A stretch of 52,545 nucleotides of DNA from an archaeon. Lineage in GTDB: Archaea; Nanobdellota; Nanobdellia; Pacearchaeales; GW2011-AR1. The DNA lies in assembly GCA_043810775.1 (NCBI GenBank), contig JBDRNU010000002.1:1-52545 (forward strand), in the 5' to 3' direction. Shown here in pieces: positions 19,143 through 49,061 of this stretch. Below the pieces are notes generated by a model. It was not told where the DNA came from. It was given only the letters and a program-made list of their open reading frames with translations, and did not search any database. Positions within the stretch are counted from its first letter, which is position 1. Each line of letters starts with the position of its first letter. The position numbers and the translations under genes were made by a program.

Positions 19143-19237
19143 GTCAAGCTTTAGAAAAGCTTGGCAAAAGGCGAGACTAAAATCTCTGATGAGATTATTA
19201 CCTCACCACATTAACTTCCTGCATAGAGTTAGTTAAT
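19143..19237 (-). repeat. Three-hairpin element family 1, copy A
   Basis: Shares GCGAGACTAA...ATTACCTCACCACATTAACTTCCT..ATAGAGTTAGTTAAT with copy D and related sequence with copy C. Confidence 0.85.
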
Positions 19238-19283
19238 AGTTCATAATAGCTAAATTTATAAATAACTTTTCATATTTTCATTT

Positions 19284-19793
19284 ATGAAAAAAGAGGGAGT
19301 ATTAAAAGTCAAAAGATTATCAAGTACAGCTGAATTGCCCTGCTATGCATTAGATAGTGATTTAGGATTTGACTTAAGAGCTGATGAATCTATAACTTTA
19401 GCCCCTTATGAACAGAAAGAAGTTAAAACTGGTGTAGCAATTCAGATTCCTGATAATCATATTGGATTAATTAGAGACAGGGCAGGAATTGTGACCAAGA
19501 TGGGTGTGCATACGGCTGCTGGAACTTTTGACCCTGGATTTAGAGGAGAAGTTTCTATAGTTTTAATTAATTTTGGCGAGCAGACTATACAAGTTGAAAA
19601 GGGAATGAGAATAGCCCAGATGATTATCATGCCAGTAAGCAAGGTAAAAATTCAGGAAGTTAAAAGCTTGCCTTTAACTGAGAGATATGACAGAGGATTT
19701 TTAAGCACTGGCTTAAACAATGGAGAAAAAGAAAAGAATAAAAACACAAGAATATTTAGGTTTAAGAGAAAAAAGGAGGTGAAAAATGCCTAA
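19284..19793 (+). CDS. dut: dUTP diphosphatase
   Basis: GFDL, RDRAG, AGTFDPGFRGEV, RIAQ, RxDRGFLSTG. Confidence 0.9.
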   Translation: MKKEGVLKVKRLSSTAELPCYALDSDLGFDLRADESITLAPYEQKEVKTGVAIQIPDNHIGLIRDRAGIVTKMGVHTAAGTFDPGFRGEVSIVLINFGEQTIQVEKGMRIAQMIIMPVSKVKIQEVKSLPLTERYDRGFLSTGLNNGEKEKNKNTRIFRFKRKKEVKNA

Positions 19794-20073
19794 AGCAAAA
19801 CCAAAAGCTGCTATAAAAGTCGTTCAGGGAAAAGCAAAGTTAAGCCCAAAAGCATTAGGACTTGCAATTGGAATAATTTGTGCTGCAGTAATGCTACTAG
19901 CTTCTATCTGGAATCAATTTTTTGATTTAACTGGATGGAAATATTTGCTAGCTAGCTTTTACAGAGGATATAGCTTTAGTGTGGGAGGAACCATCTTAGG
20001 AATGATATATGGATTTATTGATGGTTTTATCTTTGGAGCTCTAACTGCGTGGCTTTATAACAAGTTTAACTGA
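19786..20073 (+). CDS. Small 2-TM membrane protein (holin-like annotation family)
   Basis: LGLAIG...Y.GY...G.ILG.IYGFIDGFIFG...AWLYN. Confidence 0.6.
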   Translation: MPKAKPKAAIKVVQGKAKLSPKALGLAIGIICAAVMLLASIWNQFFDLTGWKYLLASFYRGYSFSVGGTILGMIYGFIDGFIFGALTAWLYNKFN

Positions 20074-20097
20074 TATTAAAATAGGAATTTTATTAAA

Positions 20098-20475
20098 ATG
20101 AAAGTAGAAGAAATTATGAATAAGGCTCTAGTTATAGATGAGAATGTAAGTGTAAATGGCGCTGCTAAAATAATGTCTGACCATAGTATTGGGTGCTTGG
20201 TTATAATGAAGGGAGAGAAAGTTATAGGAATTGTTACTGAAAAAGATATTATTAAAAATCTTGGCAAACTAGGACAGAAGATTTCTAAAATTATGAGCAG
20301 GAGTGTTATAAGCATAGACAGAAATGACAGCATAGACAACGCTGCGCTAATCATGTCTAAGAATAAAGTCAAGAAACTGCCAGTTATTCATAAGGGAAGG
20401 CTTGAAGGCATTATCACTGCAACTGATATTATAGCTCACTCTGACCAGCTAAATGACAATTATTTGCTTGACTGA
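20098..20475 (+). CDS. CBS-domain pair protein
   Basis: KVEEIM, IGIVTEKDI, KKLPV, GIITATDI. Confidence 0.9.
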   Translation: MKVEEIMNKALVIDENVSVNGAAKIMSDHSIGCLVIMKGEKVIGIVTEKDIIKNLGKLGQKISKIMSRSVISIDRNDSIDNAALIMSKNKVKKLPVIHKGRLEGIITATDIIAHSDQLNDNYLLD

Positions 20476-20954
20476 GCCTTATTATCAAGATAATCTGCTA
20501 AAACTAATAAAGCACTTATAGGAAATATTCCTGCTTCTCTGCTTGTTATAAATTTGTTAGCTAATTTTTTAGTACCAGTTGAATTACTAATAAGAGTATC
20601 AAGCGTTTTTTTAAGCAAGGGCTTAGAAAAATATCTTTTAATTAAAGTTATATGGCTACATGTAGCTACACAATCCCATCCAAAATCTGGACTGCTTTGG
20701 AGAGATTTATAACTTTCTTCAGATTCAAATCTTTGCATTCTTTCCTGATAATCATCACAGTCACATACTAAAAATGCGCATCCCTCATATGTGTTTGATA
20801 GTGACTCATCCAAAAGTATTATTTTATTATCAACCATAAAAACCGGATAATTGCCATCTTCATTTTTAGAATTAAAGCCTTCTGGCTCAAATGCATACTT
20901 GTGCTTTCCTTTTTCAAACTCAAATTTCTCTTGGAGTATCTGATAGTCATACAT
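20460..20954 (-). CDS. Hypothetical protein with SWIM-like CxC...CxH
   Basis: VCDCDDY...TCSHI. Confidence 0.5.
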   Translation of the reverse strand: MYDYQILQEKFEFEKGKHKYAFEPEGFNSKNEDGNYPVFMVDNKIILLDESLSNTYEGCAFLVCDCDDYQERMQRFESEESYKSLQSSPDFGWDCVATCSHITLIKRYFSKPLLKKTLDTLISNSTGTKKLANKFITSREAGIFPISALLVLADYLDNKAQSSK

Positions 20955-20994
20955 AATAAAAAATATTGCTAAGATATATTTAAAGATTTATATA

Positions 20995-21576
20995 CTAAGA
21001 AGCTTCAATAAAATTTCTTCCGCCTTCTTTTGCCTTGTATAAGGCTTTATCAGCGCGCTGTTTTATCTTAGAGATAGTATCATCTTTTTTATAACATGTT
21101 ACTCCTCCAGAAATTGTTAGTTTATATTTTTTTATTAGCTTATCTCCCTCAACTGCTTTCCTGATTCTTTCTGAAACTTTGTAAGCTTTTTCCAAAGAAG
21201 TATTTGGAAAAATTATTATAAATTCTTCACCTCCAAATCTTGCAGCTATGTCTGCTTTTCTAGTTTGTTTTCTTAGCAGCTTACCCAGATGCTCTAAAAT
21301 TCTGTCTCCAGTAATGTGGCCATAGGTATCATTAAGCTTTTTGAACTTGTCTAGGTCAAGAATTAGCAGTGATAAAGACTGCCCTCTTTTAGCTTTTTCA
21401 AATTCTTGGGAAAAATGAGCTTTAAAATACTGGTAGTTATAGAGCCCTGTTTTTTCGTCTGTTGTGGCTATCTCATAAAGTACATCAATGCTTTTGTCAA
21501 TGTCTTGCAGTAAATCTGATATTTTCTTTCTAACTTCTGGACGAAGTGCTGAGAGTCTATCTCCTTTTTTTTTCAT
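20995..21576 (-). CDS. GGDEF-domain diguanylate cyclase
   Basis: DEKTGLYN, DLDKFKKLNDTYGHITGD, RKAD I-site, RFGGEEF, ADKALYKAKEGGRN. Confidence 0.92.
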   Translation of the reverse strand: MKKKGDRLSALRPEVRKKISDLLQDIDKSIDVLYEIATTDEKTGLYNYQYFKAHFSQEFEKAKRGQSLSLLILDLDKFKKLNDTYGHITGDRILEHLGKLLRKQTRKADIAARFGGEEFIIIFPNTSLEKAYKVSERIRKAVEGDKLIKKYKLTISGGVTCYKKDDTISKIKQRADKALYKAKEGGRNFIEAS

Positions 21577-22343
21577 TTTTCTACATTTGAAGTCCTTATA
21601 TATTCAATATTCAACTGATTTAATAAACTTATTATTTCCTGCCTCTCTTTAGAGTTCATGCCTTTCCAGTCTAAAATTGCTAGCTTTGGCTTTTCAAGAG
21701 TCTTGGAAACTGCCTGAGAAATTATTTCCTTGCTAACAGGAAGTGAATATTCAGGGATTATATGCCCTAGAGCATAGAAAGAGTTTAGCTGAATTTTATT
21801 AAAGCTAGGGGCATAGTGCTTGCCTCCAATTGCAATTGCAGGAATTATTTTTTTATCTGGCTTAAAATTTTTTATGCATTCAGTAATTGTTTCTGCAATA
21901 ACTTTTCCTGCAAGAACATCGCGCCATTGTTCATCAGAACTGCCTATCTCTATGTATACTGTTGGTTTTTCTAAATAGGGACCGTGATGAGTTACTTCTA
22001 AAGAAACCTGGAAGTCCAGTTTTTCTTGAGATGCTTTTTTTTCAAGTGTCTTGAATAAATATTTATTAAATAAAGCTGAGCAAGGCACAAGAACCTCTGG
22101 CTTGCCCCCATAGTCAACTTTATGAAAATTGCCAATTGAGTGAACAGTAAGAGCTTTTCTTTTATCAGCTGACTGGTGCTTGCTAGCAAAAATGAAAAAA
22201 TCTGCATCAATCTGCTTGTCAAGATTTTCTGCGAAAATCTGAACCTTATCAATTAGCTCAACTTTTAATCCTTTTTTCTCAAGCTCTTGAGCAATATTCA
22301 TTCCAGCTGGGTCTGACTTAGATACTATGATTGCGTATTTCAC
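21573..22343 (-). CDS. dtdA: D-aminoacyl-tRNA deacylase (archaeal DTD2)
   Basis: SKHQS, LTVH, EVTHHGP, IEIGS, GGKHYAP, DWKG. Confidence 0.9.
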   Translation of the reverse strand: MKYAIIVSKSDPAGMNIAQELEKKGLKVELIDKVQIFAENLDKQIDADFFIFASKHQSADKRKALTVHSIGNFHKVDYGGKPEVLVPCSALFNKYLFKTLEKKASQEKLDFQVSLEVTHHGPYLEKPTVYIEIGSSDEQWRDVLAGKVIAETITECIKNFKPDKKIIPAIAIGGKHYAPSFNKIQLNSFYALGHIIPEYSLPVSKEIISQAVSKTLEKPKLAILDWKGMNSKERQEIISLLNQLNIEYIRTSNVEK

Positions 22344-22376
22344 AAAGCTTAAAAACAGACTTTGTTTAAATATATT

Positions 22377-22652
22377 ATGATAGAGATGATCAATATAATT
22401 TTGACAATTCTAGTGCTAGTAAGCTCGGTTCCAGCTGGATACTTAATAGCCTGGCTGGCTAGAGATGAGCTTGTAGCAGGAAGAAAGTGGTTTTATTTAA
22501 TAATTATAGCAAGTGTATTAGTTGCTGTATTATATTCTTCAGTAGTAAAGTTTGATGGTGTAATTATTCTTGCTTTAGTTTACCTTAGCATTCTTGCCTT
22601 TATTTCTTTAGTAAAAAGCAGAGATAAGAAGTGGACAAGGAAGAGGATTTAA
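22377..22652 (+). CDS. Small 3-TM membrane protein
   Basis: Hydrophobic helices, ARDELVAGRKWF. Confidence 0.6.
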   Translation: MIEMINIILTILVLVSSVPAGYLIAWLARDELVAGRKWFYLIIIASVLVAVLYSSVVKFDGVIILALVYLSILAFISLVKSRDKKWTRKRI

Positions 22653-22724
22653 AATAACTTAGTAAACGAAAATATATACAAAAAATTTATAAAGAATTCT
22701 GATATAATAATTAATTTCAAAATC

Positions 22725-22916
22725 ACCGAAAGCTTTAAATGATAAACCTTTAGGAGGTTTCCAACTGTCGTGCTTATCAGCACAACTTATTAACTTCCTG
22801 CATTGAGTTAGTTAATGGTTAAGCTTTCTACCGAAAGCTTTAAAATTCAAGCTTGTAAGCTTGGCAACAGCGAGCTTAACAGCTCACTAAAAAAGCTTTC
22901 TACCGAAAGCTTTAAA
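22725..22916. repeat. Three ACCGAAAGCTTTAAA repeats interleaved with family-1 copies B1 (22741-22816) and B2 (22847-22888)
   Basis: Repeats at 22725, 22830, 22902; B1 has ATTAACTTCCTGCATTGAGTTAGTTAAT; B2 has two of the three hairpins. Confidence 0.8.
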
Positions 22917-22960
22917 TAGCATTATTGTCACCAAATAGTAGTAATAAATATGGGGTTAAA

Positions 22961-23419
22961 ATGGAAGATACAATATCTAGAAAGACATTTATAGGACAAG
23001 TAGCAGTTGGAGCTGCAGGCTTATGGGGGATATTCAATGCAATTGGATGTTCAGATAAAGAAGAAATAGCTTTAGAAAAAAAATTAGATAATATAGAATT
23101 CAATGGTTTTGCTGAATTAAATAGTGGAGAGTATGAAGCAATTGATTTTAGTATTCCTACTAAGGGAAAAGTTATGAGAATTGATAAATTAGGAGATGAA
23201 ATCTATACTAAAAGGCATGGAGATAATGGAATTATAATTATTGAGGGGTCTTTTTACTATAAAATTGAACCTGATAGGAGTTTTTCACCTAATTTATACC
23301 ATACTGACAAGTACGGAAAGACTCCTGAAAATCCAGACAATGATTACTGGGGAGATACTAGAACAGGAAAAGTTACTCTTCGCATAAAGCCAAAAAAAGG
23401 AGATAAAAATGATAAATAG
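22961..23419 (+). CDS. Putative Tat-type exported lipoprotein
   Basis: SRKTF twin-Arg-like motif, hydrophobic stretch, AIGC lipobox. Confidence 0.55.
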   Translation: MEDTISRKTFIGQVAVGAAGLWGIFNAIGCSDKEEIALEKKLDNIEFNGFAELNSGEYEAIDFSIPTKGKVMRIDKLGDEIYTKRHGDNGIIIIEGSFYYKIEPDRSFSPNLYHTDKYGKTPENPDNDYWGDTRTGKVTLRIKPKKGDKNDK

Positions 23420-24299
23420 AGATTGCGCAACTAAAAAAGACAGGAAACAACTTGGAAAGAAACTTAGTTTTAAAGAGAATTTAGTGCTTACTGCTTTAGG
23501 GGTTTTAGGGGTGGCTTTGGGTTCTGCTTATTTTTTAAAATGCAGCGAACCTGCAGAAGGATCTATTAATTCCAGAAAACACAATCCAGCTCCAATAGCA
23601 GCTCAAGGAGAAATGAAAAGCCAGGATTATGATGACAGAGAAAAAGCAATGCTAAGATATGTTGAGCTTTCAAAAGCAGCTGATAAAGAAAGAGAAGGGA
23701 AGAATAGCCAGTTAGAAGGAATGGCAAATTCAGAAACCAGCTCCACTAAGGCAATTCAGATTGAACAGCAAAAATTAGAAGCTAAAACTGATGAAAGAAT
23801 AGCAAAAATTCCAAAAGAGCAAAACCCTAAAAAATATTATACAAAAGCAGAATTAAAAGCTATTGCCAGAGAGGTTTATGAAGATATTGGACTTCCGAGA
23901 CACTGGAAGAAAGAGTATTATGATATTCTAGTAAGTATTGAATCAAACTGGAGTGGCAATCCTTTTTTGAAAAGCTCAGCAGGGGCTCTTGGACCGGCCC
24001 AAGTAATGAAAGATACTCATTTGGCAATGATGGGAAAACCTTATGATGGTGACCCAAAAGATAATTTCACTGCTTCAATGCTATATATTTGGGACGCTTA
24101 TAAGTTCAATAGCAAGCGCCCATGGTATAGGCAGCTTGACGATCAGGGAAAATTAGATAATGATCTTGCTTTTTACAATCTTGGACAAACAAAATTCGAG
24201 AAAATAAGATTTGACTATAAAAAAATTAATGAAACAAGGAATTATGTTAAAAAGCATAGGCAATTAAGGAATAAAACCTTTGCAAGGAGTGAAAAATAA
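23409..24299 (+). CDS. Membrane-anchored lytic transglycosylase (SLT domain)
   Basis: IES catalytic motif, SSAGALGPAQVM, LAFYNLG, ETRNYVKK; N-terminal TM. Confidence 0.85.
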   Translation: MINRDCATKKDRKQLGKKLSFKENLVLTALGVLGVALGSAYFLKCSEPAEGSINSRKHNPAPIAAQGEMKSQDYDDREKAMLRYVELSKAADKEREGKNSQLEGMANSETSSTKAIQIEQQKLEAKTDERIAKIPKEQNPKKYYTKAELKAIAREVYEDIGLPRHWKKEYYDILVSIESNWSGNPFLKSSAGALGPAQVMKDTHLAMMGKPYDGDPKDNFTASMLYIWDAYKFNSKRPWYRQLDDQGKLDNDLAFYNLGQTKFEKIRFDYKKINETRNYVKKHRQLRNKTFARSEK

Positions 24300-24300
24300 A

Positions 24301-24489
24301 ATGGCAGAAGAATTAGAAGGAAAATGCATGTGGAAAAATATGGCTGAAAATGACAGGAAGAAAGCTGAAACTGGAGAAGGTTCTGTAACTTTAAGAAACA
24401 AGGATGAAGAATGCTATAAATGCGACGGAACTATAGAGTATGCAAAACGTATAAATTGTAAAGACTATGTTGACTTGAATGATATTTAG
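24301..24489 (+). CDS. Small Cys-rich hypothetical protein
   Basis: C...CYKCDG...C. Confidence 0.5.
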   Translation: MAEELEGKCMWKNMAENDRKKAETGEGSVTLRNKDEECYKCDGTIEYAKRINCKDYVDLNDI

Positions 24490-24529
24490 CTGAAGTAAAA
24501 GTTAAAAAAGCTAGATTCTGTATATTTTT

Positions 24530-25753
24530 ATGCCAAAGACAGTAAAAGATGATTTTCTGAAAAAAACTATTGCAGAAGAGCCAATTAAACTTCCACAAAG
24601 CCCTTTTTGGGAAGTATTTAAGAGATTTGGAAGAGACGAAGCTATTGCCCTAGTAATTAATGTTGCTGGAACTGCAATTATGGCTTTTATATTATTTAGA
24701 TATAATCTAATTAGTAAAAATTTAAGAAATTTAATTCTAGCACTTACTGGACCCATAGTTGAGAAGGTGGGATTTTTCCCCGGACATTTTAAAGAAGCTA
24801 GAGATGTATATAATGAGACTCCTGAAGATGAAAGAGAGAATTTAAATTATTACTTTAAAAAAGCGGTAAAGGGGGGAAGCAAGAGTCTAGCACAAGATAT
24901 AGCTTTCCATGACCCACTTTATATTATTGGCATGTGGGCCGGGCTGAATTTATATCCTGCAACTCCGGCATGGATGATTGCAGCTTTGAGCTTTATTATT
25001 GCAGTGGGAATAGTGGCTTTTATTGAGGTGGCTTGGAAAGAGATAATTTATCTTAACTATAAAAGAGGATTAAAGAAAAAAGGATTTGGAGAGGAAATTT
25101 ACTTTGAGTCCAGGTTTTTTGTCAGCTCAAGAGTTGAACCTAAGAGAGTCATAAATAAAATTGCAAAAGAGTTTGGGCTTGGCACTATTAAGAAAGCCAA
25201 GTATAATGATAATTATATTGACTGCTGTATCCCAGAATATAATGGCAGAAAAGTAAGAATGAGGTTAAGAAAAAGAAATAGAGAAAAAGGGAAGGGATTT
25301 ATTTTGAGAAAAGAAGATGAGATAAAAGGAAGATTTATGCAGACTATTCAGATAGTGTTTACTAAAGCAAGAGAGATGAGTATAAAGGAGCTTGAACAAA
25401 ACAGATACTTTCCTGTTAAGAAAGAAAAATTATATTTCATACTAAAGGAAGGCATGCCTAAAAACTGCGAAGAAATAAGTGACTTGAATATAAGGAAGTG
25501 CGCACTGAAAGCCAAGGGAAAAGATAAAGAGCATAAAATTTACTTTGAAAGAATGGTGGCTTATGATAGAAAGAAAATGCTTGCTTCAATTGATTTAGTG
25601 GCTAGAGGAAAGGAAAAGCCTTTTTATGTTGTTGAGCTAAAAACATATAAGGAAAATATCCCCCTGCTTAAAGAGGCAATGCGATTTGTAATGAGAGAGT
25701 TTCCAGTTGTGCAGATTACGCACGGAAAGTATGACCTTACTAAAAAGAATTAA
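24530..25753 (+). CDS. Membrane protein with C-terminal CYTH/VTC-like domain
   Basis: 3-4 TM helices then YFESRF, DNY, RMRLRKR, FER, VVELK. Confidence 0.55.
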   Translation: MPKTVKDDFLKKTIAEEPIKLPQSPFWEVFKRFGRDEAIALVINVAGTAIMAFILFRYNLISKNLRNLILALTGPIVEKVGFFPGHFKEARDVYNETPEDERENLNYYFKKAVKGGSKSLAQDIAFHDPLYIIGMWAGLNLYPATPAWMIAALSFIIAVGIVAFIEVAWKEIIYLNYKRGLKKKGFGEEIYFESRFFVSSRVEPKRVINKIAKEFGLGTIKKAKYNDNYIDCCIPEYNGRKVRMRLRKRNREKGKGFILRKEDEIKGRFMQTIQIVFTKAREMSIKELEQNRYFPVKKEKLYFILKEGMPKNCEEISDLNIRKCALKAKGKDKEHKIYFERMVAYDRKKMLASIDLVARGKEKPFYVVELKTYKENIPLLKEAMRFVMREFPVVQITHGKYDLTKKN

Positions 25754-25789
25754 GGCAAGATTTATAAATTGATAATTTTGTAGTGTTTT

Positions 25790-26440
25790 ATGATCCAGCT
25801 ATTTAATGAAGACACTTTAGGGCTTGTTGGAAGATTGAGAAGATATAAGGTAGTTAGCTTATTTCTTGAAGCATTAGATTGTCATAATCATGAAACTTTT
25901 GAGCATAGCCTTGCTGTAGGATATCTAGGAGTTGATTTAGGAATAAGCTTGGGATTTAGAGAAGAGAGTTTAAGATTGCTAGGAACTGGGCTTCTTTTGC
26001 ATGATATTGGAAAGCTAAGAATTAATAGAAATATCTTAGATAAGCCTGGAAAACTTAATGAAAGTGAATTGGGAATGATGCACAAACATCCTCTTTATGG
26101 TTATAAAGCATTAGAAGGAGTAGTGCTGAATGGCATAGACATGCTTGATGTGAGAAAATTAGTTATTTCCCACCATGAATACCACAAAGCTCACCCATAT
26201 ATCAGGGATGGAGATGAAAGAAGAAGAAATCATAGAATTGAAAGACCTAGAAGAAATATGAATGGAAGAATTCAGACACTAAAACAAATAGTCTCTGTAT
26301 GTGATTTAGTTGAAGCGTTAGATAGTGAAAGAGTTTACAAGCCAGATTTAGTAAAGCGAGAAGTTGAAGCCATAACAAGAAGAGATTTTACTGGAAATCC
26401 AAAGTATATTGATGCTGTATTAGAAAGAATTTATGACTAG
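25790..26440 (+). CDS. HD-GYP-like phosphohydrolase
   Basis: ETFEHS, LLHDIGK, ILDKPGKL, HPLYG, HHE, VCD..EAL.SERVYK. Confidence 0.85.
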   Translation: MIQLFNEDTLGLVGRLRRYKVVSLFLEALDCHNHETFEHSLAVGYLGVDLGISLGFREESLRLLGTGLLLHDIGKLRINRNILDKPGKLNESELGMMHKHPLYGYKALEGVVLNGIDMLDVRKLVISHHEYHKAHPYIRDGDERRRNHRIERPRRNMNGRIQTLKQIVSVCDLVEALDSERVYKPDLVKREVEAITRRDFTGNPKYIDAVLERIYD

Positions 26441-27234
26441 ACTATCTGCCTGGCTGACAATAAGATTTTTTCAGCTTTTTTTCTTGGAATAGAAGCCTTG
26501 GACATAAGCTCGCCGACTTTTAAACTTGTAATATCTTTCACTAGAAGTATCCCTGTTCTTGATAGTTTTTCCCGTTCAAATCTAGACAAAGCTCGCAAGA
26601 TAGTAATGGGATAGAGATTTTTCTTCATTATTAGAGTCTGAAGATTTTCCTCATGAGGATAGTTCCAAGATGTTATTTTTATTTCCATACAATTACAATA
26701 CTGCTTTGCATGATGGGACATTTTAGTATTAGTTGCTAGCCATGCTCTGTCGAAATGTTTTTTTAAATCAAGAAATCGGGCATAAGTATACATTGCTTCT
26801 TTTATATCTGTATAAATTCCAGGAGAGTTATGATACTTACATTCAATCATATATCTCAACTTATTTACTGCAGAAATATCAACTTCCTGCGTGACGCATT
26901 TTCCCTGCATGACTTTTCCGACTCTTGTTTTATAGCCATGATTTTCCAGGAGTCTGGCAAAGAATCTCTCAAAAAAATAACCATGAGGGCCTAGATTCAT
27001 AATTGCCTGCTTTAAGGTATATCTTTCAGCTACTACTGGATTTTCTTTAAGATAAAATAAGGTTAACTTGAGAATTGCCCGAGTTGACATTCCATTTCTT
27101 ACTTTTTTTCTTACCTTAGATACTACTTCATCTGCAAAACCTGGAGAGGCGCCTGCCCTGATAGCTGTATGGTAAATCTTGTCTGGACTAAATGCTGCTT
27201 TTTCCCCATTAGCTTTTATAATGTAAATTGACAT
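26437..27234 (-). CDS. ATP-cone + Mrr-like PD-(D/E)xK nuclease
   Basis: IIKANGEK..F..DKI (ATP cone); FERF, EVDI, IECKYH. Confidence 0.8.
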   Translation of the reverse strand: MSIYIIKANGEKAAFSPDKIYHTAIRAGASPGFADEVVSKVRKKVRNGMSTRAILKLTLFYLKENPVVAERYTLKQAIMNLGPHGYFFERFFARLLENHGYKTRVGKVMQGKCVTQEVDISAVNKLRYMIECKYHNSPGIYTDIKEAMYTYARFLDLKKHFDRAWLATNTKMSHHAKQYCNCMEIKITSWNYPHEENLQTLIMKKNLYPITILRALSRFEREKLSRTGILLVKDITSLKVGELMSKASIPRKKAEKILLSARQIV

Positions 27235-27243
27235 TTTCTCTTT

Positions 27244-27879
27244 TTATATCCATTTTTTCTTAATTAAAAAATCTTTCACTATATTAAAGACTTGCTCATG
27301 ACCTTGGGAATTCGGATGAACTCCATCAATTAGCAAATTCTTGTAACTAGATTTAAACTTACTAAATAGATTGATAAATTCTATATTTTTTTCCCTGGCA
27401 GCCTGTTCAGCTAGACTGAATATTTTCCCAGAATTTTCATTTTTATATGAACATTCTAATAGCCAGGGAACTGGGTCAACTTTAGATTCATCGCAAGGCA
27501 TGTGAGCTATGTAAGCCACTTTATCTGAATATTTTTTAGCTATTTCAAAAATTTGAAGCATATTTTCCTTGAATTTTTCTAAAGGAACCCGGAGCTTCTT
27601 AGTTTTATTATTATATAGAGAATCATTTGCTCCCACGACAATTAGAATTATCTGGTCTGAGTCAGGCCAGAGCCTTGGCTTAATCTCAGATTCTATTCTT
27701 TTGAGCATACCAGAAGAGTCATCCCCATCAACTGCAAGATTATTGACAATCCAGCCATTATCTAGGCTAGTTTTAATTGCCTTTTTATACAAGAATCTGC
27801 GAAGGCGCTCCACCCACCCTCCTTCTTCATCCCAGGCGCCACACTCTGTGCTTGCGCCGAATACAAATAGCTCTCCCAT
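27244..27879 (-). CDS. SGNH/GDSL hydrolase
   Basis: FGAST, NLAVDG, GAND, DGVHPN. Confidence 0.85.
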   Translation of the reverse strand: MGELFVFGASTECGAWDEEGGWVERLRRFLYKKAIKTSLDNGWIVNNLAVDGDDSSGMLKRIESEIKPRLWPDSDQIILIVVGANDSLYNNKTKKLRVPLEKFKENMLQIFEIAKKYSDKVAYIAHMPCDESKVDPVPWLLECSYKNENSGKIFSLAEQAAREKNIEFINLFSKFKSSYKNLLIDGVHPNSQGHEQVFNIVKDFLIKKKWI

Positions 27880-27901
27880 GATTATTTCTAAGCTTGAAAG
27901 G

Positions 27902-28612
27902 TTATAAATCTTGCTTTTTAAGTGAAAAATCTACTGCTGATTGAACTATAATTTCAATTGTATCAAAAAGCTTTATATCAGTATGAGTTTGATTAATTGC
28001 AAGAGGAATTTCAGTACAGCCCATTACAATTGCTTCTGCTCCTTGTTTAAGATAATCTCTTGCTATATCTTTTAAGACAATAATATCTTCATCTCCTTGA
28101 TGCCCACCCATTACATGTTCTATTACTTTTGTGAGGATTTTTTTCTGCTCTTCATTTGGAGAGATGACTTCAATGCCTGAATTTTCAAATCTTTTTTGGT
28201 AAAGATTCATATTAACAGTGCTTTCAGAAGCAAATAGTCCTACTTTTTTATATCCGGCTGAAAGAACTCTTTTCTTAGTTTCATCAATAATATTGAATAT
28301 AGGAATTTTAACTGCTTTCTGCATTTCTTCATAAAAGTAGTGAACTGTATTGCAAGCTATAATAACTAATTCACAACCAGCTGACTCTAATCTTTTTACC
28401 CCTTCAATTAGTTGTTTTTTTACTAGTTCTTCATCTGCAATTCCTGTTTCGTCGAATCCTTGCATTGGAAGACTGTAAATTATAATTGGAGGATAATCAG
28501 AGTCTTGAATTGCATTATACTTGTTCTGAGAGTATTTGATTATCTTTTGATACAAATTTGCCGAGGCTTCTGGCCCCATACCACCTAATACTCCAATAGT
28601 TTTGTTTGTCAT
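27902..28612 (-). CDS. Aspartate/amino-acid racemase
   Basis: IGVLGGMGPEAS, ACNTVH, MGCTEIP. Confidence 0.9.
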   Translation of the reverse strand: MTNKTIGVLGGMGPEASANLYQKIIKYSQNKYNAIQDSDYPPIIIYSLPMQGFDETGIADEELVKKQLIEGVKRLESAGCELVIIACNTVHYFYEEMQKAVKIPIFNIIDETKKRVLSAGYKKVGLFASESTVNMNLYQKRFENSGIEVISPNEEQKKILTKVIEHVMGGHQGDEDIIVLKDIARDYLKQGAEAIVMGCTEIPLAINQTHTDIKLFDTIEIIVQSAVDFSLKKQDL

Positions 28613-28688
28613 AACTTTGCATTATAAATATAAGTTAAAAGTCTTTCGGTATAGCAAGATTTAAAATATAAAATTTCTATATCTTATT

Positions 28689-29402
28689 ATGACTTTTTAT
28701 TTAATAGGGCTGGGATTAAGCCTAAAAGGGGTAAGTTTAGAATCTTTGGAAATTTTAAGAAGCTGCAGAAAAATTTATATGGAAACTTATACTGTAGAAA
28801 TTCCTTACCAGATTTTTAGGCTAGAGGAAAGAATTGGCAAGCAAATAACTTCCTTAACCAGGCTAATGGTTGAAGAAGAAGAGTTTGTAAAAGAGGGCAA
28901 GAAACAGGACATAGCTCTGCTAGTTTATGGAAGCCCGCTGATGGCTACTACCCATATTTCACTGGTAATGAAGGCTATTAAAGAAAAGGTTCCTTACAGA
29001 GTAATTCATAATGCAAGTATTTTAGATGCGATTTCTGAAACTGGACTGCAAGTTTATAAGTTTGGAAAAACAGCTAGCATGCCTTCTTGGCAGGCAAATT
29101 ACCAGCCAGACTCGTTTGCAAAAATTATAGCAGATAATCAGAAAATTAAAGCACATACCTTAATACTTGTTGATATAGGCTTGCTATTCAGAGACTCTTT
29201 AAACCAGCTGAAAATAGCAGTAAATAATCATAAAGTAAAGCTAGACAAGATAATAGTCTGCTCAAGGCTAGGGATGGAAGACAGCAAAATTTATCATGGA
29301 AGAATAAACCAGCTGTCAGGCAGTGATATTTTTCCTCCGTTTTGCTTTATTATTCCTGGCGAGCTTCATTTTGCTGAGCAGGAATTTCTGGATAAAATCT
29401 AA
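28689..29402 (+). CDS. dph5: Diphthine synthase
   Basis: YLIGLGL, ETYT, GSPLMATTH, HNASI, GLQVYKFGKT, HTLILVDI. Confidence 0.92.
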   Translation: MTFYLIGLGLSLKGVSLESLEILRSCRKIYMETYTVEIPYQIFRLEERIGKQITSLTRLMVEEEEFVKEGKKQDIALLVYGSPLMATTHISLVMKAIKEKVPYRVIHNASILDAISETGLQVYKFGKTASMPSWQANYQPDSFAKIIADNQKIKAHTLILVDIGLLFRDSLNQLKIAVNNHKVKLDKIIVCSRLGMEDSKIYHGRINQLSGSDIFPPFCFIIPGELHFAEQEFLDKI

Positions 29403-29462
29403 ATCTCCAATATATAATTTAGCTTACAATAATGCTTATAAGCTGAAGATATAACTAATTTT

Positions 29463-30191
29463 ATGGCTAAAAATAAAACTATTGCTGATGTAATAGGAAC
29501 ATTAGGACGAGCAGCTCGAGATTTTAAAGAAATTACTAAAGATAGGGCTTTTAGTGTAATTGCGTCTTTTGAACATGGAGACCCCAGACACAACTTAACA
29601 AAAATGATTGATGGAGCAAATGCAATTGGAGAAGGAATTTCAAAACTTGGAGAAGGAATTTCAGATTATGTGAACAGTGGTGAGCTTAGACAAGACCTGG
29701 AGCAAATAGGCGACAAGATCGATGAGATGCAAGATAAACTTGGAGATTATGCAGGAGAATTTTTTAGAGCTGATGGAACTGTTAATATGGAAAGACTGCA
29801 AGATGAACTAAAGAACACAAGACAAGCAGTGAAAAGATATGGTGAAGAGGGTGTTGATGCAATGAATGCACTTTTTAATGGAGCTTCTGATGTAGCAGTA
29901 AAAATAAGGGACAGCTATAGAAAACAAATACCTTCAAGAGCTGAAATGCAAAAAGGACCTTATGCCGGAATTGGAGAAGGAATTGATGGACATGTAACAA
30001 GGGAAAACTGTGACAAATGCCTAGGATTCTATGACAGAGTTAGGAGCAATTTGCCTTCAAGACTGACTGGAAGAGCAGATATACTTGACCACATTAAAGC
30101 ATATGCAGTTACAGGAAAAAGAGAGCTATTAGCTAGCTTAAGAGAAGATGGAAATGATGGGGCAGCTGAAAGAGTCAGGCAATATATTTAA
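29463..30191 (+). CDS. Hypothetical amphipathic-helical protein
   Basis: IGEGISKLGEGISD repeat, apolipoprotein-like pattern. Confidence 0.55.
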   Translation: MAKNKTIADVIGTLGRAARDFKEITKDRAFSVIASFEHGDPRHNLTKMIDGANAIGEGISKLGEGISDYVNSGELRQDLEQIGDKIDEMQDKLGDYAGEFFRADGTVNMERLQDELKNTRQAVKRYGEEGVDAMNALFNGASDVAVKIRDSYRKQIPSRAEMQKGPYAGIGEGIDGHVTRENCDKCLGFYDRVRSNLPSRLTGRADILDHIKAYAVTGKRELLASLREDGNDGAAERVRQYI

Positions 30192-30215
30192 AAACCTCAA
30201 ATCCTAAAATCTTAC

Positions 30216-30290
30216 ATGGCAAAAGATAAACCTAATTATAAAAACAGGATTATCTTAGCTGAATCTATATCTCAGATTATTATAAACTGA
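30216..30290 (+). promoter_or_regulatory. Putative Ile-rich leader peptide (MAKDKPNYKNRIILAESISQIIIN)
   Basis: ATG ~23 nt after TTTAAAA; 6 Ile in last 13 codons; GCAAGCT/AGCTTGC hairpin at 30291-30312 follows the stop. Confidence 0.45.
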
Positions 30291-30320
30291 GCAAGCTGAT
30301 TTTCTAGCTTGCAAGACAAG

Positions 30321-31916: not shown

Positions 31917-31918
31917 AG

Positions 31919-34755: not shown

Positions 34756-34823
34756 CCTTTTATCATAGCAATATGAAAGAAAACCTTTAAATACTTAGCT
34801 AAATTAAATTTCATAACTTTAAA

Positions 34824-35630: not shown

Positions 35631-35669
35631 AGCTACTCAAGAAAAAGAGGTAAGGAATGAAGAGGGATG

Positions 35670-36956
35670 TTAGATTAGATCAGAAATCAAATAATGAGAA
35701 AAGGCTTTCTTAATTTTTACTTTTACTATTTTACCTAATAAATTTTTACTGCTTCTTATGATTATAAGTTTATAATCATTAGTTCTGGCAAGACAATTAG
35801 TTCCTGTTTGTTCATTTACCAAGCAAGTTTGTTCTGTATTTATTAAAGCTTTATTATTTTCAAGAGCTATTTTTAAATGAAGCTTTTGAATTTCGAGAGC
35901 TCTTGATTTAGCTAGCTTTGCTGGAATTTGCTTAAGTAAAGCAGCCCTAGTTCCCTGCATTGCCCAATATTTGCTTATATTAACTACATCTGGGCGAACT
36001 TCTTGAAGCAGTTTTTTTGTATCTTGAAAATCTTGTTCAGATTCAAAAGGGTAAGCCACTATAATATCAGTCCCAATAGTTATTCCAGGAAATTCTGATT
36101 TAAATTTAGAAATTATTTTCAGGAAATCCTTAGCTTTATATTTCCTATCCATTGCAAGAAGAATTTTATCAGAGCCAGACTGAACTGGAAGATGAAGGAA
36201 CTTGTACATTTTTTCATGCTTGTAAATTTCTATTAGCTCAGATAAAATTGGCAAAACATGATTTGGATTCATCATTCCCAAACGAACTTGAAAATTTCCC
36301 TTAATAGCAAGAATCTTGGAAAGTAACTCTGGAAGTTTATACTTACCTGAATCTAATCCATAAGATGCATTATCTTGGCTAGTTATCCATATTTCCTTGC
36401 ATCCAGACTTTAAGTCCTGATTGATATTTTCCAGAATCTTTTCTTCTGAATAAGAAAATAAATTGCCTTTTACCAACTTAGTAATGCAGTAATTACATCT
36501 TCCAAGACAGCCTTCTGATATCTGAGTTATGCCTATTTTCTTACGATAGGATAATTTAGGAATACATAATTTAACTTCATTTTTCTTAGATAGAAACTCG
36601 ATTTTATTATATTTGCCTTCACTAATCTTCCTTATTAGCTTTAGAATATCCCGAATATGGGAGATTCCAAGAAGATAGATATTCTTGCCATGAAACTTAC
36701 GAACAGAAGGCATGCAGCCAGCTATTATTAGAGGTTTATTTAAGTTTAATAGGTCAGAAATTCTCCTTTTTATTTTATTTTCAGTTGGACCTTTTACTAT
36801 ACAAGTATTAATAATCAGCAAGTCGGCAATTTTTGGATTATTTGTAATTTCTAAGCCGGCTGATTTTATCAAGCCAAGCATAATTTCAGTATTATTTTGG
36901 TTAGCTGAACAGCCATAAGTTTCAATGTATAGTGAAAGATATTGATTACTTATCAT
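35670..36956 (-). CDS. tRNA methylthiotransferase (MiaB-like, archaeal e-MtaB/CDKAL1 type)
   Basis: ETYGCSAN, NTC, AGC, CLGRCNYC radical SAM, HLPVQSGSD, TRAM. Confidence 0.9.
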   Translation of the reverse strand: MISNQYLSLYIETYGCSANQNNTEIMLGLIKSAGLEITNNPKIADLLIINTCIVKGPTENKIKRRISDLLNLNKPLIIAGCMPSVRKFHGKNIYLLGISHIRDILKLIRKISEGKYNKIEFLSKKNEVKLCIPKLSYRKKIGITQISEGCLGRCNYCITKLVKGNLFSYSEEKILENINQDLKSGCKEIWITSQDNASYGLDSGKYKLPELLSKILAIKGNFQVRLGMMNPNHVLPILSELIEIYKHEKMYKFLHLPVQSGSDKILLAMDRKYKAKDFLKIISKFKSEFPGITIGTDIIVAYPFESEQDFQDTKKLLQEVRPDVVNISKYWAMQGTRAALLKQIPAKLAKSRALEIQKLHLKIALENNKALINTEQTCLVNEQTGTNCLARTNDYKLIIIRSSKNLLGKIVKVKIKKAFSHYLISDLI

Positions 36957-37098
36957 TTATCTTTCCCTTGATATCAAATGCGCAATTAAGAAATAACCGC
37001 GTCCTTTGATATAAATAAATTTTAGCACCATAAATATATTATAGGGAGAGGCTTTTTAAAGTTAAATTGCTTTGTTTATTTGAAAAAGGGATTAAAAT

Positions 37099-37947
37099 AT
37101 GGTTGATATTTACCAGACTCTTAGAGATTATGCAAATGTAATAGTGGTAACAAGAACAATTATATTAATAGTTATATTGGCAATTGTTTTTGGATTTATA
37201 ATAAGCAGGATTAAAAGAGCCTTGTTAAAAAGGACAAAATCTAAAAAATATATTTCAAATATAAAGATTTTCTCAAGATTATTGTATTATTTATTAGTAT
37301 TAGTATTAATCTTAGTGGCTGTTTTTTCTTTATCAGGAGATTATACAGGTTTAGGAATTACTGTTGGGTTACTTAGTGCTGCTTTGGGATGGGCATTGCA
37401 AAAACCAATTACAGGTATAGCTGCTTGGATAATGATTATAGTTAAGAGGCCTTTTAGAATTGGGGATAGAGTTATAATTGGAAATATTAAAGGAGATGTT
37501 TATGATATTACAATTACACATATTTACTTGAGTGAGGTTGGAGGTTTAATGCCAGGTGAGGAAACTTCAGGAAGAGTTGTTATGGTTCCTAATTCACTTT
37601 TATTTGATATGAATATTATAAATTATACTTTGCAGGATGATTTTGTTTTAGACCAGGTTAATGTCAGCATTACTTATGAAAGTGACTTAGATAAGGCAAT
37701 AAAAATAGCGCTAGATTCTGCTAAGAAAATTTTAAAAGAGATTATTGAGAAGACAAAAAAAGAGCCTTATGTCAGGACTTTTTTTGAGCCAAGTAACATG
37801 GGTGTTCGAGTAAGGTATTTTGTCCCAGCTGACAGGCTTCAGGAGTTTTCAAGTGCAATTACTAAAGAGATTTTTGATAGAATAAGAAAAGAGAAAGATG
37901 TTGAGATAGCTTACCCCCATTCTGAAGTTGTTTTTAGAAAGAAATAG
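37099..37947 (+). CDS. mscS: Small-conductance mechanosensitive channel
   Basis: 3 TM, ALGWALQ, RPFRIGDRV, VPNS, IAYP. Confidence 0.88.
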   Translation: MVDIYQTLRDYANVIVVTRTIILIVILAIVFGFIISRIKRALLKRTKSKKYISNIKIFSRLLYYLLVLVLILVAVFSLSGDYTGLGITVGLLSAALGWALQKPITGIAAWIMIIVKRPFRIGDRVIIGNIKGDVYDITITHIYLSEVGGLMPGEETSGRVVMVPNSLLFDMNIINYTLQDDFVLDQVNVSITYESDLDKAIKIALDSAKKILKEIIEKTKKEPYVRTFFEPSNMGVRVRYFVPADRLQEFSSAITKEIFDRIRKEKDVEIAYPHSEVVFRKK

Positions 37948-37977
37948 GTTTTTAAAGTCAAATTTCTAGTTTATACT

Positions 37978-38664
37978 ATGAAAAAAGAAGTGATTTTAAT
38001 TTTAGGAATTTTGCTAATAAGCTTAGCAGTGACTTCTGTATATGCTCAGGGACAGGGCAATGATGACAGTAATGCCAATGACGGGCAAGGCAATCAGACT
38101 CAACAGCAAGACCAGAACCAGACTATGGCTCAAAATAAGACACAGGAAGGAAAAACTTCAAGTTTTTCACCTTGGCAGAAAAGAAGCGAGGATGAATGTC
38201 CTGAAGGATGCTCATGCCATGGAGCAGTTGTTTCTTGCAAAACTGAAAGTGGAAAGACAATGAGTATTGAAGCAGGAAGAAGTGGAAATTTGATTACTAT
38301 AACTATTGACAAAACTGAAGTAGATACTGAACTTGAGATTGAGACAGAATTGGGAGAAGGCAATCAAACAAAGCTAAAAGCCAAGATGAAGAACGGTGAG
38401 ACTAAAGAAGTTAAAGTGATGGGTGATGAAGCTCAAGTAAGGGTAAGAGAAAGAGCAAGAATTTGCGAAGGTGAAGGAAACTGCACAGTGAAGCTTCAGG
38501 AAATTAATGGCGAATTAATGTATGAGTTTGAAGGAAACAAAGAAGGCAGATTATTTGCTTTATTTAAGAAGCAGATGAAAATACAAGCCAGAATTGATGC
38601 AGAAACCGGAGAAGTCAGCAAGATTAAGAAGCCATGGTGGGCTTTATTAGCTAGTGAGTTGTAA
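37978..38664 (+). CDS. Secreted protein with Cys module and PepSY-like KKPWW C-terminus (paralog of 51559)
   Basis: Signal peptide, CPEGCSCHG, IDAETGEV..KKPWW. Confidence 0.7.
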   Translation: MKKEVILILGILLISLAVTSVYAQGQGNDDSNANDGQGNQTQQQDQNQTMAQNKTQEGKTSSFSPWQKRSEDECPEGCSCHGAVVSCKTESGKTMSIEAGRSGNLITITIDKTEVDTELEIETELGEGNQTKLKAKMKNGETKEVKVMGDEAQVRVRERARICEGEGNCTVKLQEINGELMYEFEGNKEGRLFALFKKQMKIQARIDAETGEVSKIKKPWWALLASEL

Positions 38665-38757
38665 ACCTTTTCCAAAGGTTTCCAAAGAGCAAGACTAAAT
38701 CTTACTAGTGTAAGATATTAGCTTACTGCATTAACTTCCTACCTAGAGTTAGTTAAT
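38661..38757 (-). repeat. Three-hairpin element family 1, copy C
   Basis: Aligns with copies A and D with compensatory changes. Confidence 0.85.
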
Positions 38758-38833
38758 AAGAAGTAGGTTTTTTATTTTTCTTTTTTTATTATTTTTTGAT
38801 AATATTTATAAACTTGGTAAACTTACTAATAAT

Positions 38834-39013
38834 ATGGGTGACAGAAATCAAGCATTAGCTATTGCATTTTATGATATTGATGAAAACCCACATTTTAAAT
38901 TAAGAATAAGTTACACTGGTCGTGGAAGCGACACAAATGAATACCAAGAACCCAATAATCAACCTGCTTCTTCAGAATTGCCCCAGTCTGATTTGGAAAG
39001 TAAAACTGAGTAA
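38834..39013 (+). CDS. 59-aa hypothetical protein
   Basis: Below ORF-track cutoff; TATA (TTTATAAA) ~22 nt upstream, T-tract after stop. Confidence 0.5.
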   Translation: MGDRNQALAIAFYDIDENPHFKLRISYTGRGSDTNEYQEPNNQPASSELPQSDLESKTE

Positions 39014-47693: not shown

Positions 47694-48415
47694 TTCAAAT
47701 AAATATTTCAAACAAGTTCTTGTATACTTTGCTAGCTGGACTTTTTTTAGTTTCTATTTCTTTAGCTGTATATGCTATAGATACTAGTCAACCTTACCAT
47801 TCTGCTGAACAAATTGATACCTCAAATGGATTTACTGTTGAAGGTGATTTAAATGTTGAAGGTGGTGCAAGTGTTGGTGGGAGCTCAATATGCACAATGC
47901 AAAGTGGATGTGGCAGTGCACCAGGGGCAATTATTGGAGGTGGATCTACAAGGTTTGGCTGCCCAGGAACCATTCCTCTTTGGGGAGATGGAAAATGTTC
48001 TGGAAGTACCTTCTACTGTGAGACTGGAATTAAAATAAAAACTGGAGCTATCGATTTTATAGCGGGAAATCCAGTAGAATTTGTTTATTTATGTTTCTCT
48101 GCTGATCCTAATGAGAATACTGTTTACATAGGAGTAGATAATAATGGAGTAGATGATCCTGATTGCTGGTTTGAATCAGGTCCAGGAATTACTTCTTGTG
48201 GAGCTACTCAATGGGGAACTCCTGGCCACGAGAGGATTGATGAACTTCCACAAGAGTGTGTAAATGGGGCGCTTACAAGATACAATACACTTAATATTGA
48301 TGGAAAAACAGGAGGGTGGAGTGTAAAATCCTGGTCTGATACTGGTGCGGCAAGCTCTTGTGTTGATGGGACTTCAGATAAATTAGAAATTCACTTTTTA
48401 AGAATAAGCTCTTAA
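47690..48415 (+). CDS. Secreted fibre-like protein 3
   Basis: ISNKFLYTLL signal, HSAEQID, VEGDLNVEG. Confidence 0.65.
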   Translation: MIQINISNKFLYTLLAGLFLVSISLAVYAIDTSQPYHSAEQIDTSNGFTVEGDLNVEGGASVGGSSICTMQSGCGSAPGAIIGGGSTRFGCPGTIPLWGDGKCSGSTFYCETGIKIKTGAIDFIAGNPVEFVYLCFSADPNENTVYIGVDNNGVDDPDCWFESGPGITSCGATQWGTPGHERIDELPQECVNGALTRYNTLNIDGKTGGWSVKSWSDTGAASSCVDGTSDKLEIHFLRISS

Positions 48416-48416
48416 A

Positions 48417-48803
48417 ATGAAAATAAACATTAATATTTCAAACAAGGCAATATATACCTTATTAGCAATTGCTTTTATTATTGCACTTGGAGGAATTGTG
48501 TTTGCTGTTGCTGGTGTAAGTCATGATGCTAGTGAATTAACTGGTGTTTGTAGAACAGATGGGACAGGATGTCCAGTTGGGGGAACTGGGAATAAAGTTG
48601 CAGTATATAAAATCCCTTCATATTGTGTCTTTCCTGGAGTTCTTTCAACTAATTCAACATGTATGTCAGCCCAATGTGCATCAGGTGAATTTGATTCACC
48701 ATATTATTATTTTTGTACTGGAGTTTGCATCCCAAATCCCTCAGGAAAAACTTCCCCCCAAATATGTCCGAATACCTTGGTAGGAAATTTTTACATAGAA
48801 TAA
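48417..48803 (+). CDS. Secreted fibre-like protein 4
   Basis: ISNKAIYTLL signal, SHDASEL, Cys-rich tip. Confidence 0.65.
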   Translation: MKININISNKAIYTLLAIAFIIALGGIVFAVAGVSHDASELTGVCRTDGTGCPVGGTGNKVAVYKIPSYCVFPGVLSTNSTCMSAQCASGEFDSPYYYFCTGVCIPNPSGKTSPQICPNTLVGNFYIE

Positions 48804-48856
48804 AATTAAAATACAGGAAAATATTTAATCTCTAATTTCTTTTTCTTTTTTAATAT

Positions 48857-48929
48857 GCCTCAATAGCTCAGCTGGTAGAGCAACGCTCCCGTAAAGCGTG
48901 GGTCGCAGGTTCAAATCCTGCTTGAGGCT
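48857..48929 (+). tRNA. tRNA-Thr(CGT)
   Basis: GCCTCAA/TTGAGGC acceptor, ACGCT-CCCGTAA-AGCGT, GGTTCAAATCC. Confidence 0.9.
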
Positions 48930-48930
48930 T

Positions 48931-49027
48931 GCTAACCTTTAAAAAAGGTTACCAAACAGCGAGACTAAATCTTACTGATGTAAGATATTACCTCACCACA
49001 TTAACTTCCTTCATAGAGTTAGTTAAT
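48931..49027 (-). repeat. Three-hairpin element family 1, copy D, within a 15-bp duplication of the tRNA-Thr 3' end
   Basis: TTGAGGCTTGCTAAC at 48922-48936 and 49045-49059. Confidence 0.85.
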
Positions 49028-49061
49028 GATCAGTCAAGTAGGATTTGAGGCTTGCTAACTC

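Follow-up and report, generated by a model that had tools for sequence, protein, structure and literature searches.

The stretch of DNA analyzed here, called the window throughout, is the complete contig JBDRNU010000002.1 (52,545 nucleotides (nt); positions 1 to 52,545 of the forward strand) of an archaeon of the Pacearchaeales (GW2011-AR1; GenBank assembly GCA_043810775.1), and it carries dispersed copies of a small non-coding element built from three hairpins. The window corresponds to contig C2 of a draft genome (G000) of 26 contigs with a total of 995 kb, 33% G+C and a completeness of 80%. Four full copies are located on the minus strand at positions 19143-19237, 22741-22816, 38661-38757 and 48931-49027, as described in an earlier reading made from the letters alone (the sequence-only reading), and are named below by their 5' ends. 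A partial copy and a remnant described there are also present; the partial copy starts at 22845 rather than 22847 (22845-22888) and comprises hairpins 2 and 3 with hairpin 1 missing, and the remnant near 52498 spans 52497-52514 and corresponds to the final 18 nt of a copy of the 19237 type.

The copy at 48931-49027 (93.9 bits) is of the long hairpin 2 type, with hairpin 1 at 49000-49027, hairpin 2 at 48958-48997 and hairpin 3 at 48931-48953. It is convergent with a tRNA-Thr(CGT) gene on the plus strand (48857-48929), the 3' end of which lies within a duplicated 15-nt target. The downstream copy of the target (48922-48936, minus strand) overlaps the tRNA 3' end and the last 6 nt of hairpin 3, and the upstream copy (49045-49059, minus strand) precedes an inverted form of the hairpin segment from the tRNA end, located at 49034-49044. 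The copy at 38661-38757 (87.5 bits) abuts the stop codon of a convergent open reading frame (ORF; 37978-38664) and has no detectable flanking duplication. The remnant at 52497-52514 (minus strand) is placed at the end of a paralogous gene (51559-52500), in the same position as the insertion site of the 38757 copy. These two paralogous ORFs have no Pfam match and are ~65-80% identical over most of their shared length, with identity rising to ~96% in the final 230 nt and in the 15-17 nt immediately past the stop codon, which looks like a gene-conversion tract ending at the element insertion site.

The copy at 22741-22816 (59 bits) has the short type of hairpin 2, and the same locus is filled in a congener (G001, C6:11822-11877). 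It is arranged in tandem with the 5'-truncated copy at 22845-22888 (minus strand), which was recognized by eye and was not reached by BLAST at an E value of 1e-3, and copies of the same palindromic target are found on both sides of the latter. The first target copy (22893-22916, minus strand) would, judged from its sequence, read on the plus strand as a promoter resembling a transcription factor B recognition element and TATA box, ~30 nt upstream of the ORF at 22925-23419. The second (22821-22844, minus strand) lies between the truncated and the full copy and forms a single-stranded DNA (ssDNA) hairpin of -7.3 kcal/mol, within the 0.3% tail of the intergenic background, and the third (22725-22739, minus strand), reduced to the left arm, directly follows hairpin 3 of the full copy. 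The region 22725-22916 thus shows three palindromic targets alternating with a truncated and a full element of different subtypes, indicating that the site was hit more than once.

The copy at 19143-19237 (96.9 bits) is located 57 nt upstream of a tRNA-Ser on the same strand, and its site is not filled in G001. An inverted copy of its hairpin 3 is placed downstream at 19117-19132 (minus strand; inverted score 15 compared with a background of 5.6), where the homologous G001 bases form the 3' end of a gene. At the place where G000 has the element, G001 (C6 ~7650-7810) has three tandem 57-nt units directly beside the tRNA-Ser, followed by a radical-SAM-like ORF and a small ORF that are both missing from G000.

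Genome-wide, a regular expression matched 14 places in G000, and a covariance model of hairpins 1 and 2 (R1) gave 13 strong and two weak matches. One of the weak matches (C7:36885) is a true diverged copy in which a G-C pair replaces the outer A-T pair of hairpin 1, and the other (C23:7106) is a lone hairpin 1 situated 32 nt upstream of a tRNA. Among 60 relatives (genomes of 0.4-1.4 Mb) R1 detected a single carrier, G001, with seven matches. A second model built on 20 copies (R2) was run on 150 sampled genomes of the family, where the element turned up in G001 and in one genome from another genus (G169) and in none of the 148 others, and on 150 sampled genomes of the order with no carrier detected. 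Rescanning G001 and G169 with laxer filters added one copy each, so that full copies total 24, with 14 in G000, eight in G001 and two in G169. The three carriers are 80-85% complete; the coding DNA of G001 is ~70-76% identical to that of G000 with syntenic gene order.

Rfam models at gathering scores matched only two tRNAs in the window and not the element, and at E values up to 10 nothing credible overlapped 48931-49027. Phage and plasmid collections held no match to the element; two patterns run on viral contigs returned 0 and 5 stretches, the best of the five scoring 13 bits with the model; and among the matches listed for a loose IUPAC pattern of the junction of hairpins 1 and 2 in collections of genome and metagenome contigs, none of 229 stretches had both hairpins, which does not show the element to be absent from these collections. 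The covered portions of the literature on MITEs (miniature transposable elements bounded by inverted repeats) or long target duplications in archaea, and of that on palindromic targets with orientation bias and on Enterococcus repeats, describe nothing resembling the element. The window genome is found in groundwater metagenome runs, and the six sequencing runs with window DNA comprise groundwater, biofilm and aquatic DNA with shares of at most 0.28, none of the listed runs being RNA.

The element measures 75-147 nt and is arranged from the 5' end as hairpin 1 (28 nt), hairpin 2, a T-rich linker and hairpin 3, the last being a hairpin of free, variable sequence. Hairpin 2 is either long, enclosing an inner hairpin, or short. 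In three G000 copies (C4:12705, C7:7053 and C9:28070), hairpin 3 is enlarged by an insert of ~70 nt that contributes two additional hairpins; 14 of the insert's first 15 nt agree with the downstream flank of the C4 copy. The 5' end reads ATTAAC or ATCAAC. None of the 24 copies departs from an exact 5' end; the 3' ends differ according to the type of hairpin 3, and by eye GTTNAC, which is weakly related, closes only a subset of them. The minus strand of G000 C25 has at ~2652 a sequence that resembles hairpin 1, sharing its outer stem but not its loop, between a TTTAAA box and an immediately following ATG; it may represent a relic of hairpin 1 or one of its natural relatives.

Over the 20 best copies, 97.3% of the cells in the stems of hairpins 1 and 2 are paired compared with 87.5% when the partners are shuffled, and 11 of 25 pairs have changed on both sides, values that none of 500 shuffles reach. 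Sliding the partners by 1-3 columns lowers pairing to 28-48%. The alignment was fitted to the model, which favors structure; the types of compensatory change are plain in the raw sequences, with A-T/G-C at the first pair and G-C/T-A at the second pair of hairpin 2 and T-A/C-G in hairpin 1. The covariation of hairpin 2 proposed in the sequence-only reading is borne out in 20 copies, as is its T-G wobble at the third pair, found in all 20. The near-invariance claimed for hairpin 1 holds within the window and does not extend beyond it, as hairpin 1 covaries in the congener from ATTAAC/GTTAAT to ATCAAC/GTTGAT and reads GTTAAC/GTTAAC at G000:C7:36885. Among 405 paired cells there are 32 G-T pairs and two A-C pairs, and this excess together with the constant wobble fixes the folding strand. 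As ssDNA, the minus strand of the four window copies folds with z scores of -3.8 to -5.75 (-5.75 for the 49027 copy), none of 200 shuffles folding equally well, and is 1.2-2.5 kcal/mol more stable than the plus strand in all four. Covariation and the invariant wobble show the structure to be under selection on the minus strand, as had been proposed, and the conserved 5' module of hairpins 1 and 2 is taken to be the recognition site of a trans-acting factor.

Comparison of orthologous sites in G000 and G001 confirms that the element is mobile and that its flanking duplications derive from the target. At G001:C19:9198 the element is placed between genes overlapping stop to start, and a target of ~28 nt is doubled around it; in the empty counterpart (G000 C26 ~8740) the target is single. 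The converse is seen at G000 C26:9972, the matching G001 spacer being empty with one diverged copy of the 13-16-nt target. A third site, filled at G001:C9:3783 and empty in G000 (C15:105071-105077), shows no clear duplication. Direct repeats of at least 10 nt, with the downstream copy starting no more than 6 nt from the element end, flank 13 of the 24 copies, and the mean score between a copy's own flanks is 12.8 compared with 5.8 for mismatched flanks. The duplication length is not fixed, the values being 10, 13, 15, 15, 16, 21, 24, 25, 25 (34 with a gap), 30, 36, 54 and 76 nt. The 15-bp duplications reported at three window copies are exact at 49027 and 22816 and amount to 7 nt at 19237 and to none at 38757. 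The 3' end is retained in two 5'-truncated copies, one of which is flanked on each side by an intact target copy.

The inverted target sequence that was reported to precede the duplications is found in three different forms. At 49027 the upstream duplicate contains a 15-nt hairpin segment from the tRNA end in inverted form, at 22816 the whole target is palindromic, and at 19237 it is the inverted hairpin 3 downstream of the copy. The accompanying proposal of a target-complementary tail guiding insertion is not supported in general; the similarity of hairpin 3 to its own flank (means of 5.8 and 6.0) does not exceed that to the flanks of other copies (5.6, standard deviation 1.4), with outliers in 2 of 20 copies, and hairpin 3 was rejected as a target guide on this absence of excess similarity.

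The copies adjoin tRNAs, stop codons and promoters as had been described, and placement is intergenic throughout, with flanking genes that differ from copy to copy and belong to the housekeeping class. By a reading of the neighboring genes, 11-12 of 13 G000 copies have a convergent gene as their 3' neighbor. Folded as ssDNA, 6 of the 13 duplications (five independent) fall within the 2.5% tail of length-matched intergenic DNA. The duplication at G000:C7:36885 spans a 34-nt hairpin-bearing stretch from base to base, and that at G169:C10:24856 spans a 60-nt hairpin-bearing stretch with short flanks. Of 15 copies or remnants, four are no more than 60 nt away from one of only 26 tRNAs detected, and a fifth directly adjoins a tRNA with an intron on C9, seen by eye; this long-intron tRNA (G000 C9 ~27800-27930) was missed by ARAGORN in its default bacterial mode. 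A TATA-like hexamer opens seven or eight of the duplications, and in 8 of 24 copies such a hexamer starts between -34 and -24, compared with 13.6% for random positions in intergenic DNA (P = 0.011). The 5' junctions show no evident conserved target tetranucleotide.

The single orientation noted in the window holds within every contig, and the comparison with GC skew that was suggested as a check is strongly positive. In the 20 kb around each copy, raw GC skew is negative on the element strand for 13 of 13 G000 copies. As the coding strand is G-rich (component of ~0.19), the skew was divided into a coding-strand component and a remaining strand component. The latter is negative for the folding strand, which lies on the C-rich strand, at 14 of 14 copies in G000, 8 of 8 in G001 and 2 of 2 in G169, on 15 contigs, the 24 including one orthologous pair of copies. 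The strand with positive strand skew is richer in coding bases on 19 of 26 G000 contigs. By the usual rule the strand with positive skew and more coding bases is the leading strand, so the folding strand would have the polarity of the nascent lagging strand. We read the orientation as a sign of replication-linked, single-strand insertion; the acting molecule may be RNA or ssDNA, and the link to the replication strand favors DNA. Antisense placement was considered as the orientation rule and rejected, being common but absent at G000:C7:36885 and G169:C10:24856, which lie between ORFs on the same strand. All 26 contigs of G000 have an unusually strong strand component of skew (0.03-0.17 in absolute value) on top of the coding component.

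Profile searches agree with the expectation that no IS200/IS605, IS110, TnpB or reverse transcriptase gene is common to the carriers (TnpB and IS110 in G000 and G001 only). RVT_1 (PF00078) and Cas1 (PF01867) were found in none of the three carriers, and TnpB in neither G000 nor G001. Y1_Tnp (PF01797) was found in G001 (C33:113-457, 97.8 bits) and not in G000 or G169, and IS110 (PF01548) in G001 on C6 and not in G000. The Y1 gene encodes an IS200-type transposase of 135 amino acids and, in the stretch G001:C33:1-1957, is flanked by G+C-rich hairpins unlike the element, and the covariance model has no match on that contig. The IS110-type transposase (G001:C6:252-680) has 333 amino acids. Several further candidates were discarded. 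A second Xer-like recombinase is not distinctive, each carrier having two and non-carriers 0-5. Hairpin 1 as a dif-like 11-6-11 recombinase site conflicts with the G001 copies, in which hairpin 1 is shortened to 20 nt with the stem kept. Terminal inverted repeats were rejected, the weak RTNAAC likeness of the ends being confined to some hairpin 3 types, and H/ACA, C/D, bulge-helix-bulge intron and tRNA-like readings were dropped by eye only.

Selection on the fold, a precise 5' end and an orientation linked to replication suggest that a specific factor acts on one single strand, and the long duplications that track target structure, together with the truncated 5' ends, suggest that the 3' end is joined first and the structured target then copied. 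With moderate confidence we favor the reading that the element family is a lineage-restricted, small non-autonomous mobile DNA whose folded strand is inserted as ssDNA into the nascent lagging strand. The conserved 5' module folds on one strand only, and the 3' hairpin of free sequence marks the other end. The folded strand would move as ssDNA, presumably with a dedicated enzyme, and be joined into the nascent lagging strand at replication forks, preferably beside structured targets such as intergenic palindromes and tRNA ends. Joining would begin with the 3' end, and the structured target stretch would afterwards be copied twice, via gap fill-in or an unremoved flap, giving long duplications with a length set by the target hairpin rather than by an enzyme ruler.

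A number of observations weigh against insertion of ssDNA at the fork. No enzyme common to the carriers was found with the RVT_1, Cas1, TnpB, Y1_Tnp and IS110 profiles in genomes that are 80-85% complete. Leading and lagging strands were assigned by the usual rule and not from a mapped origin, and the strand-skew value of G169 C10 is only -0.017. IS200/IS605 elements are not known to make a target duplication, and their active strand is on the lagging-strand template, opposite to the polarity proposed here. No duplication is present at 11 of 24 copies, 6-7 of the 13 duplications have no hairpin, and at five copies the repeat extends into hairpin 1 by 3, 5, 7, 16 or 23 nt, which the model does not explain. 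Copies with perfect duplications of 30-43 nt have no close source among the assembled copies, core identity to the nearest copy being at best 95% overall and only 75% for C26:7150. No intermediate, excision product or within-population polymorphism was seen in the contigs of four runs covering 18900-38880, which are low-depth, short pieces with no joint at any copy.

The absence of a transposase would itself be accounted for by a variant of this reading, unlikely in our estimation, in which the element is a new mobile DNA riding on lagging-strand synthesis and host replication enzymes, with at most one small binding factor, perform the transposition. The self-folded strand, similar in size to an Okazaki fragment of archaea, would become ligated into the series of nascent fragments at places where processing misses a structured flap or a hairpin in the template, and the target duplication would be the retained flap. 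This variant would explain the single polarity, the duplications that track the size of the target hairpin, the 5' truncation and the lack of a transposase.

An RNA-mediated route in the manner of a short interspersed element (SINE) is rather improbable. The element would be transcribed from its first base by way of a TATA box in the duplicated target and copied by target-primed reverse transcription starting from hairpin 3. The precise 5' end of all copies, the TATA-like hexamer at -34 to -24, the variable duplication lengths and the 5'-truncated copies that retain the 3' end are as such a route predicts, G-U wobbles are ordinary in RNA, and the divergence of the perfect-duplication copies from all others is what error-prone copying would give. 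Set against these are the absence in all three carriers of a match to the reverse transcriptase on which non-long-terminal-repeat elements and SINEs depend, the 16 of 24 copies without a suitably placed TATA box, and the lack of an A-rich or other common 3' tail; nor would reverse transcription at nicks predict that all 24 copies are oriented by replication-type skew.

The combination of features fits none of the transposon families tested, and the element works most like the single-strand hairpin elements, namely the IS200/IS605 miniatures (PATEs) and the repetitive extragenic palindromic sequences (REPs, REPINs), which are likewise small and non-coding, lack terminal inverted repeats, form imperfect hairpins on one strand and have an orientation tied to replication. 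That the element is a miniature derivative of IS200/IS605 or of the REP/RAYT type, moved as ssDNA by a Y1 HUH transposase binding imperfect subterminal hairpins, is nevertheless improbable. In its favor are the hairpins at both ends, a conserved imperfection in the stem of hairpin 2, the lack of terminal inverted repeats, a strict orientation relative to replication in 24 of 24 copies, and a Y1_Tnp gene in G001. The end hairpins of IS200/IS605-type elements are mutually similar, whereas hairpins 1 and 3 are unlike, and the family is not known to duplicate its target, whereas 13 of the 24 copies here have duplications of 10-76 nt and the empty and filled sites document duplications of ~28 and 13-16 nt. 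The Y1 enzyme that would be required was found in one of the three carriers and not in G000 or G169, next to hairpins of a different, G+C-rich kind on a contig without a model match. A conserved target tetranucleotide at the 5' junction is not evident, and the folding strand would have a polarity contrary to the one described for IS608.

Just as improbable is an origin without any dedicated enzyme, by template switching in replication or by break repair at palindromes, in which a stalled strand would copy the element elsewhere and return, duplicating the palindrome. Hairpin-enriched targets, variable duplication lengths, the repeats that run 3-23 nt into hairpin 1 at five junctions, the hairpin segment inverted in one duplicate, the replication-tied orientation and the lack of a transposase common to the carriers would all be consistent with this. 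The compensatory changes and the invariant wobble speak for selection on the fold, which is unexpected for a passive by-product; a 5' end exact in all 24 copies and the persistence of the family in two genera also count against it.

A host small-RNA or cis-regulatory family, for instance antisense or terminator-like, spread by local duplication and kept for its function, is very unlikely. It would accommodate the conserved and covarying structure, the strictly intergenic placement with a mostly convergent gene on the 3' side, and the TATA-like boxes at the right distance in some copies. It is contradicted by presence and absence at orthologous sites of the congener with target duplication, by truncated copies, by flanking genes that differ between copies, by its detection in only two of the 150 genomes sampled from the family and in none of the 150 from the order, and by the absence of an Rfam match.

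A Cas1-type integrase, whether casposase-like or in off-target spacer integration, attacking both borders of a palindromic target and so doubling it, in the way that CRISPR repeats are doubled, is scarcely credible, since the likenesses (several duplications that are palindromes of ~24-34 nt spanned from base to base and present on both sides as in Cas1-mediated integration, the region 22725-22916 resembling a tiny array of three target repeats and two element copies produced by repeated hits, and the targeting of tRNA 3' ends) are offset by the absence of a Cas1 match in all three carriers, a duplication of 10-76 nt rather than fixed length, a structured insert of 75-147 nt without inverted termini, and an orientation rule not expected of such enzymes.

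Other families share single traits with the element. Classical DDE-derived MITEs are non-autonomous, intergenic, multi-copy sequences of ~100 nt with target duplications and stable stem-loops, and their defining traits are inverted repeats at the termini together with a duplication that is short and constant in length (PMC3184786). The element has neither, with no consistent inverted termini by eye, long variable duplications and a single orientation. Rolling-circle transposons (IS91/ISCR, Helitrons) have a conserved 5' end, no inverted termini, a replaceable 3' end, which matches the variable hairpin 3, and a 3' hairpin of free sequence as a possible stop signal, a role treated for Helitrons in PMC4778049. 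The integron attC site resembles the element in relying on structure over sequence, with one active folding strand that is kept on the leading-strand template and a uniform orientation. In attC the ends pair across the whole site, and the sites flank cassettes in arrays next to an integrase with no known target duplication, whereas the element copies are dispersed between housekeeping genes. Rolling-circle transposons differ in not being known to make a target duplication, in using a fixed short target and in requiring a Rep/Y2 enzyme. The traits of IS110 bridge-RNA systems are not found, PF01548 being present in G001 and not in G000, the two genomes covered by this search, and the element tail showing no similarity to its own flanks.

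Two further observations concern the window and its genome. The window contains at 4313-4428, in the spacer after an ORF of 1370 amino acids, three occurrences of a 37-nt unit with a 16-nt palindrome, two of them identical, at spacings of 43 and 36 nt. G000 also encodes an archaeal-type D-aminoacyl-tRNA deacylase (PF04414), which, with the intron-bearing tRNA on C9 and the small genomes of the relatives, marks the DNA as archaeal; the term DPANN used in the sequence-only reading fits these facts.

Small-genome archaea of the DPANN type are thought to be poor in transposons, and their non-coding DNA is almost unstudied. Four features of the element cannot be placed in any of the families tested, namely the strand-specific compensated fold, the lack of inverted termini, the long duplications that follow target structure and the orientation rule that holds for 24 of 24 copies. 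If insertion of ssDNA at the fork is correct, the element would represent a third route exploiting lagging-strand synthesis, beside IS200/IS605 and Tn7-TnsE, and one that duplicates its target. The copies mark the direction of replication on draft contigs, and composition alone could suffice to orient this lineage's draft contigs with respect to replication. The copies duplicate promoters, start codons and tRNA ends and can thereby rewire expression in very compact genomes.

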